Positions 19,220 to 59,827 of a stretch of DNA of 64,000 nucleotides are shown in pieces. Origin of the DNA: an uncultured bacterium (lineage in GTDB: Bacteria > Arandabacterota > Arandabacteria > Arandabacterales > JALGWA01); the NCBI GenBank assembly GCA_964604955.1, contig CAZSBE010000002.1, positions 194 to 64,193 of the forward strand, in the 5' to 3' direction. The notes beneath the pieces are model-generated. The model saw only the letters and a list, made by a program, of their open reading frames with translations. It was not told where the DNA came from and made no database searches. The position numbers and the translations under genes were made by a program. Each line of letters opens with the position of its first letter. Positions within the stretch are counted from its first letter, which is position 1.

Positions 19220-19270
19220 CACCGCATCAATCGTCGCCCGCCGCCCCGCCCGAGTCAAGCTCCCCATGAG

Positions 19271-19318
19271 GGGGTCAGGTCTTAAAATGCACAAGGGGTC
19301 AGGTCTTGAAATGCACAA
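19271..19318 (+). repeat. REP-like element, two tandem 24-bp units (GGGGTCAGGTCTT[A/G]AAATGCACAA), upstream flank of the transposase gene
   Basis: Direct reading. The units are exact except for one A/G difference. Confidence 0.9.
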
Positions 19319-19372
19319 CACCCGGTGGCCCCACCATTCCCTCCGAATCTGGCACGGAGGTTGCAATTGTAA

Positions 19373-20236
19373 ATGCCCGCTATGGTAAGACCGATACGCA
19401 TTGAAGCCCCGGGAGGTGTCTACCACATCACTTCACGGGGAAACGCCAAACAGACGATCTTCCGGGACGCAGTGGATTACCGGTGTTTCTTCTCCATCCT
19501 GGGGGATGTCGCCGGCGACTGCGGGTGGCAGTGTTACGCCTATTGCCTCATGCCGAATCACTACCACCTGGTGCTGATGACACCCAGCGGAGCGCTCTCG
19601 AGGGGGATGCGGCAGATCAACGGGGTATACGCGCAGAGGTTCCATTGCCGCCATGCTTCCGTCGGCCACGTCTTCCAGGGAAGGTTCAAGTCCATTCTCG
19701 TCGACAGGGAGGCGTACCTGCTTGAAGTGTGCCGCTACGTCGTGCTCAACCCGGTGAGAGCGGGTCTTGTTCGAGAATGCGGCGACTGGCGCTGGTCCAG
19801 CTATCTTGCCACGTTGGGACGCGACCCGAAGCCCTCGTTCCTGGCCAGCGAATGGCTGCTCGGACAGTTCGCCAGGTCTCCGGCGAGGGCGCGGACCGCA
19901 TTCGTCAGATTCGTGGAGGACGGCCTCAAGGCCACCAGCCCGTTGGAGAACATCCGGGGAGGTGTCTTTCTGGGAAACGAGGCCTTTGTGTCCGGTTTCT
20001 CGGCGCAACTTGCCCGCAAGAGGGCCGAGCGCGACTTTCCCCGTGTGCAGCGCCACGCGGACCGGCCGCCGCTCTCGGAGATACTGCGCGCGACGGGGGG
20101 AAGCCCCCGGACAGGCCGGCAGATCGCGGAGGCGCGGGAGCGCTGGGGCTACACCATCACGGAGATTGCGCGGTATCTTCATCTGCACCGGAACACGGTC
20201 GCGGCTCTCGCAAGAAGAGCGGGCGAGCAGGACTGA
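19373..20236 (+). CDS. Y1 HUH tyrosine transposase, IS200/IS605-like and REP-associated (RAYT-type), with C-terminal HTH region
   Basis: 287 aa. HuH motif HYHLVL. Downstream catalytic Tyr region RWSSYLAT. It is the only plus-strand gene in the window. It is flanked by inverted copies of the short repeat. Confidence 0.75.
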   Translation: MPAMVRPIRIEAPGGVYHITSRGNAKQTIFRDAVDYRCFFSILGDVAGDCGWQCYAYCLMPNHYHLVLMTPSGALSRGMRQINGVYAQRFHCRHASVGHVFQGRFKSILVDREAYLLEVCRYVVLNPVRAGLVRECGDWRWSSYLATLGRDPKPSFLASEWLLGQFARSPARARTAFVRFVEDGLKATSPLENIRGGVFLGNEAFVSGFSAQLARKRAERDFPRVQRHADRPPLSEILRATGGSPRTGRQIAEARERWGYTITEIARYLHLHRNTVAALARRAGEQD

Positions 20237-20254
20237 CCCGGAGCAGCCCGGGCT

Positions 20255-20290
20255 TGTGCATTTTAAGACCTGACCCCGGGGTCTGACCCC
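20255..20290 (-). repeat. Inverted REP-like unit (TTGTGCATTTTAAGACCTGACCCC) plus palindromic tail GGGGTC-T-GACCCC, downstream flank of the transposase
   Basis: It is the exact reverse complement of the first unit at 19271. It also supplies the last codons and stop of gpmA. Confidence 0.9.
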
Positions 20291-21033
20291 GTGGGCCCGG
20301 CCTGGTCCGCGACAGACCGTTTGGCGCGCTCGACATCTTCCGGGTCACCGAGATAGCGGGACCTCAACGGCTTGAGTCCGTCGTCGAGTTCGTAGACGAG
20401 CGGTATGCCTGTCGGTATGTTCAGCCGTACGATCTCATCATCGGAGAGGCCGTCGAGGTACTTGACGAGCGCCCGCAGGCTGTTCCCATGGGCGGAGATG
20501 ATGGCGCGGCGGCCCGACTCGATCGCCGGGGCTATCGCCTCGTGCCAGTAGGGAAGAAAACGCGCGACGGTATCCGCCAGGCTCTCGGTCAGCGGTATGT
20601 CACTTTCATTCATGTCTCTGTAGCGCGGATCGTGCCCGGGATACCGCGGGTCCGATTTATCCAGGGGCGGCGGCTTCACGTCATAGCTGCGTCTCCACTC
20701 CATTACCTTTTCTGCGCCGAACTTCGCGGCCGTCTCGGCCTTGTTGAGGCCCTGGAGCGCGCCGTAATGCCGCTCGTTGAGTCTCCAGGACTTCTCCACC
20801 GGTATGTGCAGCAGCCCCATCTCCTCGAGCACGATGTCGAGGGTGTGTATGGCCCGTTTCAGAACTGAAGTGAAGGCGATGTCGAAAACGTAGCCTTCCT
20901 GTGAAAGGAGAGCCGCGGCTTTGTGGGCTTCCTCCACGCCCCTCGCCGAAAGGCCGACGTCGGTCCAGCCCGTGAACCTGTTCTCCTTATTCCAGGTGCT
21001 TTCACCATGTCTCAAGAGCACGAGTCTGTGCAT
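20263..21033 (-). CDS. gpmA: 2,3-bisphosphoglycerate-dependent phosphoglycerate mutase
   Basis: [10 protein letters not shown] phosphohistidine motif, length, and overall dPGM similarity. The C-terminal ...DPGVRS-stop is encoded inside the repeat element. Confidence 0.9.
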
Positions 21034-22870: not shown

Positions 22871-22919
22871 TTGTGCATTTCAAGACCTGACCCCGTTGTG
22901 CATTTCAAGACCTGACCCC
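22871..22919 (-). repeat. REP-like element, two tandem units (TTGTGCATTTCAAGACCTGACCCC), overlapping the 3' end of sdhB
   Basis: Direct reading. A 1-nt spacer separates the units. Confidence 0.9.
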
Positions 22920-25557: not shown

Positions 25558-25626
25558 TGTGCAATTCAAGACCTGACCCCTGTGCAATTCAAGACCTGAC
25601 CCCTGTGCAATTCAAGACCTGACCCC
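25558..25626 (-). repeat. REP-like element, three tandem 23-bp variant units (TGTGCAATTCAAGACCTGACCCC)
   Basis: Direct reading. Three exact copies lie between the cytochrome c gene end and the sdhA start. Confidence 0.9.
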
Positions 25627-56064: not shown

Positions 56065-56108
56065 GGGGTCAGGTCTTCTCCGAGGGGGTCAGGTCTTGAA
56101 ATGCACAA
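56065..56108 (+). repeat. REP-like element: one truncated unit (GGGGTCAGGTCTTCTCCGA) plus one full unit (GGGGTCAGGTCTTGAAATGCACAA)
   Basis: Direct reading. It lies in the intergenic region between holB and the YbbR-like gene. Confidence 0.9.
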
Positions 56109-58536: not shown

Positions 58537-59827
58537 CGGCCTCCTGAAGCGGATAGGACACGTATTGATCGAGAAACGAAACCCTGTAGAGCTCCACGAG
58601 ACTCTTGACGGCCTCGTCGTCGAACTTGGTGGACGCCCCTTTCACGATCTTGCCCACGGCCTGGTCTATTTTCATGGCGTCCCTGTATGGCCTGTCCGAG
58701 GTCATGGCGACGAAGGCGTCTGCCACCCTGAGGAGGCCCGCTTCCCGCGGTATCTCCTCGGCCCGGAGCCCGCGGGGATAGCCCCTCCCGTCGGGCCGCT
58801 CGTGATGGGCGCGCACTATCTCGCTCACGCGCTCGAGGGAGCGTACCCTGCCGATTATGTCGGCGCCGATCTCGGCATGCTGCCTTACCCTCATCCACTC
58901 GACCGGCGTCAGCGGCTCAGGCTTGGAAAGGGAACGCTTGGCCAGCGAGAGATACCCAATGTCATGCAGCAGCGCCGCGTACTCCAGTGCCTGTATTCTC
59001 CAACCGGAGAGACCCGAGCGCTTGGCGAGCTCCACGGCGAGGCCGGCGACGCGCTCCGACTCCCCGCCCATGAAGGGCGTCGTTGAATCTACCGTGCTCG
59101 CGAGGGCTGCAACCGTCTCCCTCTGGCTGCTGAGGAGATCGAGGTTCACCTTCGAGCTCCTGGCGTAGTAGACCAGCCACAGGAAAAACACCACGACCAG
59201 CAGGGTAGAGAAACCCGAATACAGGAATGCCAGCGTCGTTCCCACGACCGGGGCCGCGAACGACTGGGGCAGCAGATAGAGGTAATTGGCCCGCCAGGCC
59301 GTGACCGGGAACCTCTTCAGGTTGAGCGAGGACCAGACCGTTACAAGACCGGTATTCATCGAGAAGTAGGTCAGGTGGCACAGCACGATAGGCAGGATGA
59401 GGCCGGTGCCGGTCGAGAGGGTATAGCCGGCCCCCAGCAGCGGGACGCCTCCCGCCAGGCGGTAAACCGTCCCGGCCAGGAAGAGCGAGACCACCATCTG
59501 GGACACATTGAAAACCGCCCGCGGCACGCCGAAGCGGAGATAGAACTTCAGGAGTATGAGCATCGCTACGGCCCCGACCCACGCGGCCACGCTCGCACCG
59601 TACGTGATGATGACGGCGAAGTTGACGACGGCCGTTCCTATCACGCCCCCGCCGCTCTGGAGTGACACATAGGTCAGGATGCCGGCCACGACGAGGAGCG
59701 AGAACCAGATGAGGAGCCCGAAGGAGTCGGTCGAAAGAGCGGCAGCAAACCCGGGAATCGAGTAAGCGAGAATGAGCCCCGCGATTACAGCGAGCGCGAG
59801 TGCGAACGCAGATCCTCTGCTCTTCAT
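58532..59827 (-). CDS. Polytopic membrane (about 7 TM) HD-GYP domain protein
   Basis: N-terminal 230 aa are hydrophobic helices. HD-GYP motifs LHDIGY and HHERPDGRGYP. Confidence 0.8.
   Translation of the reverse strand: MKSRGSAFALALAVIAGLILAYSIPGFAAALSTDSFGLLIWFSLLVVAGILTYVSLQSGGGVIGTAVVNFAVIITYGASVAAWVGAVAMLILLKFYLRFGVPRAVFNVSQMVVSLFLAGTVYRLAGGVPLLGAGYTLSTGTGLILPIVLCHLTYFSMNTGLVTVWSSLNLKRFPVTAWRANYLYLLPQSFAAPVVGTTLAFLYSGFSTLLVVVFFLWLVYYARSSKVNLDLLSSQRETVAALASTVDSTTPFMGGESERVAGLAVELAKRSGLSGWRIQALEYAALLHDIGYLSLAKRSLSKPEPLTPVEWMRVRQHAEIGADIIGRVRSLERVSEIVRAHHERPDGRGYPRGLRAEEIPREAGLLRVADAFVAMTSDRPYRDAMKIDQAVGKIVKGASTKFDDEAVKSLVELYRVSFLDQYVSYPLQEAA

Follow-up and report, generated by a model that had tools for sequence, protein, structure and literature searches.

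Which kind of element is formed by a Y1 transposase gene that lies between inverted copies of a short GC-rich repeat, and has it been described before? The question is raised by a locus within 64,000 nt of DNA from an uncultured bacterium of the Arandabacterota (contig CAZSBE010000002.1). We call this whole stretch the window, and all coordinates refer to it, with position 1 as its first letter. A sequence-only reading of the DNA had taken the locus for a possible undescribed class of repetitive extragenic palindromic (REP) sequence and REP-associated tyrosine transposase (RAYT), with a head-to-tail tandem unit as its repeat. Our analysis favours another answer, to which we give a probability of about 0.75: the locus is a TIRtron, i.e. 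a RAYT-related Y1 enzyme of the TIRYT type between its own terminal inverted repeats (TIRs) of about 23 nt, accompanied by scattered client repeats.

RAYT-like genes that are flanked by TIRs and come without REPs were named TIRtrons or TIRYTs by Di Nocera, De Gregorio and Rocco (2013; PMC3733652). They noted the motif GGGGWSAS in many (most, not all) TIRYT TIRs, and TIR families of moderate abundance whose copies stand alone, as dimers or in clusters. Quentin, Siguier, Chandler and Fichant (2018; PMC6006769) described TnpA_Y1 subclass 2.1, long proteins with no REP nearby and with a C-terminal domain resembling HTH_23, HTH_28 or Bac_DnaA_C. They reported it in 14.9 % of strains and consider that it probably corresponds to TIRYT. 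Since the window locus fits both descriptions, the class is not new, contrary to what the sequence-only reading had thought possible; it has been known since 2013, and the locus is a new member of a biochemically unstudied class. The features of the locus are as follows.

19271-19294, plus strand: outer left TIR unit, GGGGTCAGGTCTTAAAATGCACAA, also written GGGGTCAGGTCTTAAAATGCACA(A); exact inverted match to 20254-20277
19295-19318, plus strand: inner left TIR unit, GGGGTCAGGTCTTGAAATGCACA(A), with one mismatch relative to the outer unit; 87 nt upstream of ATG 19382
19350-19365, plus strand: sigma54-type -24/-12 element, TGGCACggaggTTGCA, between left TIR and start codon
19373-20236, plus strand: gene of the TIRYT type, 287 aa, with an N-terminal Y1/HUH nuclease and a predicted C-terminal helix-turn-helix (HTH) domain
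20254-20277, minus strand: right TIR unit, exact reverse complement of the left unit, 18 nt past the stop codon
20271-20296, minus strand: stutter of degenerate form, in which TIR tip and flank are imperfectly duplicated in tandem (TGACCCCggggtc, then TGACCCCgtgggc)
20278-20290: 13-bp palindrome GGGGTCTGACCCC, directly after the right TIR unit and inside the stutter

The left units lie where they had been placed before (19271-19318), while the right unit had been set one base off, at 20255-20278.

The Y1/HUH protein and its putative promoter

The profile searches bear out the assignment of the 287-aa protein with its HYHLVL motif to the HUH/Y1 enzymes. Pfam Y1_Tnp gives a match with E 9.6e-11, and the NCBIfam equivalog model REP_Tyr_transpos (NF047646) scores 84.0 bits at a cut-off of 80; the NCBIfam model transpos_IS200 (NF033573) stays far below its cut-off (13 bits, cut-off 55). 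The sequence NHYHLVL holds the HUH residues H63 and H65, Y122 (CRYVVLNPVRAG) is the catalytic tyrosine, and WSSY follows at 141-144. In a sequence alignment to E. coli TnpA_REP (PDB 4ER8), H63/H65 fall on the HUH motif and Y122 on the catalytic tyrosine of that enzyme. Two sets of homologues, of 26 and of 92 sequences, keep H63, H65, Y122, Q102 and WSSY with little or no variation, and the HUH, catalytic Tyr and Q/NPV motifs are invariant across the 92 sequences. The best Foldseek match of the AlphaFold (AF2) model (pLDDT 93.6) was 4er8_A (E 3.3e-8, TM-score 0.75 on the target), followed by the TnpA proteins of ISDra2, IS608 and IS200 (E 1e-5 to 1e-3). By sequence and fold, E. coli TnpA_REP is the closest solved relative of the window protein, and the conserved motifs and the model indicate that the Y1 fold is catalytically intact.

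About 45 C-terminal residues (approximately 245-285) form three helices in the predicted model. The full-length Foldseek search missed this domain, which was therefore modelled and searched separately. The C-terminal 70 aa modelled alone gave a three-helix bundle (pLDDT 82), and its structural neighbours are all HTH domains that bind duplex DNA, namely ECF sigma region 4, ParB/Spo0J, DnaA domain IV (2hcb) and the DeoR/SorC/LsrR group, the last with a root-mean-square deviation of about 1 Å over 43-45 residues. We regard the domain as HTH-like, mainly on the strength of its predicted fold.

The true start codon is likely ATG 19382 (MVRPIRIE) and not ATG 19373, because homologues begin with MARPLRIE; a predicted transcription start at about 19376 favours the same codon. 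Upstream of it lies the sigma54-type element; the pattern TGGCA[CT]N5TTGC[AT] matches nowhere else in the window on either strand. The element (TGGCAC-N5-TTGCA) is kept with different spacers in two orthologous loci, L061 (TGGCACggaggTTGCA) and L145 (TGGCATaaacaTTGCA). Compared with most of the family, the window clade has an extra 40-55 bp between TIR and ATG, and this stretch holds the element. The pattern suggests sigma54-dependent expression of the Y1 gene in this clade, possibly a new detail.

Terminal inverted repeats and stutters across the family

Bracketing of the gene by inverted copies of the repeat, noted before, was confirmed: the left and right TIRs form an inverted repeat of 25 nt (I2) with 100 % complementarity, its ends 957 nt apart. 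A longer version of 38 nt (I1, 82 %) was judged to be GC-rich chance past about position 24, because the TIR match across the family decays after positions 23-25. The unit opens with GGGGTCAG, which fits GGGGWSAS. It is non-palindromic, as had been recognized: a single unit folded as single-stranded DNA has a minimum free energy of 0 kcal/mol, and tandem units fold without significance (z -1.4 to -1.7), on which grounds a hairpin-type repeat was rejected. Folds of the left end of the locus were likewise not significant. The right end gave a modest signal (z -2.4 to -2.8), which is due to the GGGGTC/GACCCC stutter and the GC-rich flanks.

Homologues of the window protein, of about 285 aa in length and spread over many phyla, number at least 7,983 at E ≤1e-10. 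Coupling of TIR and gene was analyzed in 80 metagenomic loci whose proteins are 40-50 % identical to the window protein. In the 250 bp upstream of the gene, 53 of 72 loci have GGGGWSAS in forward orientation and a single one has it in reverse; downstream, its complement was present in 43 of 75 loci and the forward motif in one. The left end contains GGGTCA in 71 of the 80 loci and usually begins 46 nt ahead of the ATG, with TTGAAA, TTGCAA or TTGACA about 17 nt from TAtAnT. In most loci the right end, ..CAAGACCTGACCCC, lies directly at the stop codon or covers it, and several homologues end in ..KT because AAG ACC TGA of the right TIR serves as the last two codons and the stop. The tip GGGGTCAGGTCTT, in inverted orientation at both gene flanks, is at least 90 % conserved from position 2 onwards, the G at position 1 reaching 82 % at the left and 66 % at the right end. 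Furthermore, the two ends of one locus match at 16.1 of 22 positions, versus 11.2 of 22 between loci; the observed within-locus value was reached in 0 of 2000 permutations.

In Sulfuricella, two identical gene copies 4.3 kb apart each have a co-varied TIR unit (GGGGTCACATCTTGACAT). On plasmid 24 of Legionella adelaidensis NCTC12735, a 39.5 % identical homologue (WP_131739603.1) is flanked by GGGTCAGGCCTTGCC TIRs with a stutter; on plasmids overall the family was found in 8 of 72,556 records. A unit of the window type also flanks a 44 % identical homologue in a Desulfocapsa metagenome-assembled genome (MAG). This homologue (L031:2041-2874) has at least four upstream units, in an array interrupted by a run of N, and in-frame stops (..RYK*, ..ESP*), and may be a pseudogene or carry assembly errors. 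Intergenic units like GGGGTCAGGTCTTcAATTGCAC were seen with no Y1 gene within a few kb in a gammaproteobacterial (L014) and a betaproteobacterial MAG (L034), the latter with an inverted pair and an extra unit.

Outside many TIRs, the first tip nucleotides recur along with 4-14 nt of flank specific to the locus, which we term a stutter. Examples are cgaggattcGGGGTCA twice in succession before GGCC.. and TGACCCCatggag twice in succession after ..AAGACC. In 54 of the 167 copies upstream, position 7 of the TIR is the last to follow the periodicity (position 6: 17; position 8: 13), where a chance pentamer seed would give a peak at position 6; among the strict tandem stutters, 14 of 35 end at position 7. 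Microhomology was not evident at the stutter junctions. A second class ending after GGTCT (position 12) was discarded as mostly an artefact of a T/C polymorphism at position 13; clean cases are few, and the strict tandem set contains a single one, L033. The palindrome that had been reported directly after the right unit is present at 20278-20290 and is one stutter duplication, TGACCCCggggtc plus TGACCCCgtgggc, in which a direct repeat (D14, 20270-20281 and 20283-20294) reaches 92 % identity. At another locus (L090:2870-3000), the left TIR and the first gene codons (GGGGTCAGACCTTG...ATGGCACGTCC) occur twice upstream, a larger duplication of the 5' end.

The recurrent stutter with its junction GGGGTCA^G is possibly a new detail. 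Characterised TnpA_REP enzymes cleave after CT or CA (PMC8266576), and the junction, which follows CA, would by analogy resemble such a cleavage site; we treat this as a lead.

Dispersed units, inverted pairs and vertical inheritance

The repeat also occurs beyond the gene neighbourhood. In the window, units outside the gene flanks lie at three sites, all intergenic, which makes five sites overall:

22871-22919, minus strand: two dispersed units with a period of 25, between the Fer2_3 gene and the start of the nitroreductase gene
25558-25626, minus strand: three perfect 23-nt tandem units (GGGGTCAGGTCTTGAATTGCACA), between the cytochrome c and sdhA-like genes
56065-56108, plus strand: partial head plus flank (ccgagGGGGTCAGGTCTTct), then one full unit; a stutter with d=20 and j=13, ending at position 13

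With up to 3 mismatches, nine unit matches were counted in the 64 kb against 0.00 expected from 100 shuffles, and the 11-nt unit head gave 13 matches against 1.95 expected. An Rfam search of the whole window matched no family, and a literal search of the literature for the unit sequence returned only unrelated primer and eukaryotic matches.

A scan with a 22-nt pattern, using one genome per species, located the repeat in at least 56 stretches with at least 130 units of a single MAG, JASFEA01. This is a relative of the window organism and not the same genome; only one nucleotide match, of 79 %, connects the two. From 151 copies (the 56 MAG stretches, the window and the two orthologous loci) we derived a unit of 23 nt with the consensus GGGGTCAGGTCTTGAAATGCACA, the positions 1-12 of which are at least 99 % conserved, with a sharp drop of conservation at both edges. 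The consensus contains neither GTAG nor CGTC. JASFEA01 contains single units, tandem arrays of varied period and, in line with a check the sequence-only reading had put forward, inverted pairs of about 120-175 bp. At least 11 of these pairs have a common conserved core of about 95 bp, resulting in elements of about 142 bp. As single-stranded DNA, these elements fold with -44 to -48 kcal/mol (z -7.5 to -9), and the two units form a basal stem of 23 bp. At the borders of the 11 elements no consistent target-site duplication was found (0-2 nt identity). Inverted-pair elements with different cores are present in different genomes.

Several observations concern individual loci. Two copies of one region with 90.6 % identity, L041:96-348 and L054:3114-3330, differ by exactly one 30-bp unit (GGGGTCAGGTCTGAAAATGCACAAAAATGA) to the left of an inverted-pair element, i.e. 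by the gain or loss of a single unit. In several inverted-pair elements (L002, L006, L016, L037, L056 and L057 of JASFEA01, and L145:11392), one end is extended outwards by a tail, ..TGTGCATTTCAAGACCTGACCCC-c-AAAATGCACAG, which forms a stem of 9-10 bp with the conserved tip in the loop and is reminiscent of a rolling-circle origin. In JASFEA01, units lie within about 10-30 nt of tRNA genes at five loci (L029:1532, L020:1340, L032:7420, L059:703 and L023:7857). At the first of these, the layout of two forward units and one reverse unit about 890 bp apart was considered as a cargo element and rejected; it encloses ordinary genes beside the tRNA, and the units are independent.

That the building block is a head-to-tail tandem could not be upheld. 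The array period changes from site to site (20, 23, 24 and 25 nt in the window, in relatives about 30 nt and others), so tandemness arises locally as a side effect and does not define the unit of the family. The tandem arrays look like local duplications of a TIR end with no fixed building block.

The orthologous loci L061 (79 % identity) and L145 (68 %) show the same gene order as the window: a gene for an LTD-domain protein (minus strand), the Y1 gene (plus strand), and gpmA and/or a DeoC-family gene (minus strand). All three loci have a tandem unit pair upstream of the Y1 gene, with a period of 30 in L061 and 29 in L145. Two dispersed sites are shared with L061, one of them also with L145, and their arrangements differ. 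The site between sdhA and the cytochrome c gene holds three tandem units in the window, a single unit in L061 and an inverted pair of 137 bp in L145; the nitroreductase/Fer2_3 site holds two units each in the window and in L061 (12738/12768) and none in L145. Because the Y1 gene is present in one copy in the window and synteny is kept across both orthologues, the gene behaves in this lineage as a domesticated, single-copy and vertically inherited one, and the repeats would be its non-autonomous clients.

The gpmA gene (20263-21033, minus strand) converges on the Y1 gene and runs through the stutter into the right TIR, and its last nine codons (TGSDPGVRS) and stop codon are encoded by the repeat (20263-20292). 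In L145, gpmA and the Y1 gene overlap by 70 nt. The Y1 gene is probably the only plus-strand gene of the window, as had been stated: of the 48 long open reading frames whose codon GC is coding-like, 42 lie on the minus strand. A Pfam search of four of the five other plus-strand frames (58857-59168 being the fifth) gave no match, and two of the four have shadow-like codon GC.

Proposed mechanism, alternatives and known systems

How could such an enzyme act on its repeats? The C-terminal HTH would read the conserved tip GGGGTCAGGTCTT, maybe as a duplex, for example in the stem that two inverted units of one element form when paired in single-stranded DNA. The HUH/Tyr122 centre would nick and rejoin one strand, most likely after GGGGTCA, and strand transfer would move or copy segments bounded by TIRs with no target duplication. 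Aberrant rejoining would leave short tandem duplications of flank and tip, that is, stutters and arrays. In its broadest form we advance this only tentatively, holding it to be less probable than not. TIRYTs would then be a mechanistically distinct HUH branch with TIRs in place of hairpins as its substrate, in which the HTH docks on the nearly invariant tip GGGGTCAGGTCTT and the Y1 domain nicks after GGGGTCA, a CA site, on opposite strands at the two ends. Mis-joining would leave stutters of flank plus 7 nt from Legionella to uncultured phyla, and, because the unit carries a -35-like hexamer, promoter-like modules would be scattered through genomes.

A number of points weigh against the TIRtron reading and its mechanism. 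HTH-TIR binding, the nick site and mobility are all things that we infer. To our knowledge, the Y1 enzymes characterised to date depend on a hairpin in one strand. In a TIR, the recognition sequences of the two ends lie on opposite strands, an arrangement that misfits the one-strand IS608 scheme. The literature searched contained no biochemistry on any TIRYT, a term that only Di Nocera 2013 and Quentin 2018 use there. For the HTH domain, Pfam HTH_23 stays below threshold (E 3e-4; 21 bits, cut-off 24.6), the PDB profile match is weak (E ≥0.018), and the Foldseek matches (E ≥0.37) lack significance, the domain being so short. Only in the window is the right TIR intact; it is degenerate in L145 and absent in L061, so that the gene persists without needing both ends. 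Among the at least 56 JASFEA01 loci listed, tblastn found no TIRYT gene, which may have been missed. Finally, the unit and gene counts for the window organism cover a 64-kb section of its genome.

A new REP/RAYT class with a head-to-tail tandem REP would account for the layout of repeat, gene and inverted repeat, for the score of the protein in REP_Tyr_transpos and for a unit that is indeed non-palindromic. We consider it very improbable, as TIRYTs/TIRtrons with GGGGWSAS were known in 2013 and subclass 2.1 in 2018 and as the tandem period is not constant (20, 23, 24, 25, 30, 37 nt and others). An autonomous insertion sequence, in which gene and TIRs still transpose as a unit of about 1 kb in the manner of IS200/IS605, is plausible in Sulfuricella with its two identical TIR-flanked copies at a distance of 4.3 kb. 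The patchy taxonomy (PMC6006769) also suggests horizontal transfer at the level of the group, and a few copies reside on plasmids. For the window it is improbable, given one copy, a chromosomal position shared with the 79 % and 68 % orthologues, a right TIR that both have lost or let degenerate, 13 bits against a required 55 in transpos_IS200 and the rarity of the family on plasmids (8 of 72,556 records).

If the protein were instead a domesticated DNA-binding regulator that moves no DNA, the units would be operator or promoter modules bound via the HTH. A -35-like hexamer, TTGAAA, is part of the unit. With its start 46 nt ahead of the ATG and its hexamer about 17 nt from a TAtAnT, the left TIR of most family loci resembles a promoter of the gene itself. 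The protein has a predicted HTH domain and is vertically inherited, and three of the five window arrays point to a downstream gene start. Such a role, which may coexist with DNA processing, nevertheless seems unlikely to us as the whole explanation. The invariance of HUH, catalytic Tyr and Q/NPV in 92 sequences argues that catalysis is retained, and the precise stutter junction points to DNA breakage and joining. Inverted pairs have different cores in different genomes, a 30-bp unit is present in one and absent from the other of two 90.6 % identical copies, and in the window clade the gene appears to use the sigma54 promoter and not the TIR. The similarity of the 142-bp elements to miniature inverted-repeat transposable elements (MITEs) in their terminal inverted repeats would also fit ends mobilised by an unrelated DDE transposase that bracket the Y1 gene by coincidence. 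This we find hardly credible: the borders of the 11 elements show no target-site duplications, in 71 of 80 loci the left end carries the same tip, with fixed spacing and orientation in unrelated hosts, and left and right ends co-vary per locus.

TIRYTs are among the largest groups of Y1/HUH proteins, and HUH enzymes also serve as tools for coupling DNA to protein. If the enzyme does act on hairpin-free inverted repeats, the known repertoire of HUH enzymes would be widened. The comparative data provide a defined 23-nt candidate substrate, a 13-nt cross-phylum tip, a candidate nick site (GGGGTCA^G) and client elements with no target duplications. The cross-phylum tip, the junction and the putative sigma54 promoter add modestly to what was known and open the mechanism to testing.

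REPtrons, in which a RAYT (TnpA_REP) is associated with REP, BIME or REPIN sequences, have reportedly been described by Nunvar 2010, Bertels and Rainey 2011, Ton-Hoang 2012 and Messing 2012 (PDB 4ER8). They include the closest solved structure and the closest NCBIfam model to the window protein, and, like the locus, have a gene that is inherited vertically as a single copy, with a dispersed intergenic repeat on either side in inverted orientation; relatives of the window organism also have REPIN-like inverted pairs. In contrast, the window unit has neither the palindromic hairpin of REPs nor the conserved GTAG (or CGTC) tetranucleotide at its foot, the window protein exceeds theirs by about 120 aa and carries the predicted HTH, and the recognition sequence stands on opposite strands at the two ends. 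REPtrons are also treated by Corneloup 2021 (PMC8266576). Domesticated RAYTs, as reported, resemble the locus in having one vertically inherited gene with slowly changing client repeats. TnpA of the IS200/IS605 family (IS608, ISDra2) has the same HUH/Y1 fold and likewise makes no target duplication, whereas the window locus has no subterminal hairpins, is not multi-copy and fails the NCBIfam IS200 model.

With subclass 2.1, the window protein shares its place among the longest Y1 proteins, the C-terminal extension, a serine motif after the catalytic Tyr (here WSSY) and the lack of an adjacent REP. It would be placed in the subclass by these features, and its predicted HTH, unlike theirs, is sub-threshold by sequence. 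The accessible part of the 2013 description of TIRtrons/TIRYTs makes no mention of a 13-14-nt tip that is nearly invariant across phyla, of a stutter junction after GGGGTCA, of 142-bp inverted pairs with a structured core or of the sigma54-type promoter of this clade. In its essentials that description matches the window locus, where a RAYT-like gene is flanked by non-hairpin TIRs opening with GGGGTCAG, and it shares with our data TIRs that at times overlap the 3' end of the gene and that occur as singles, dimers or clusters.

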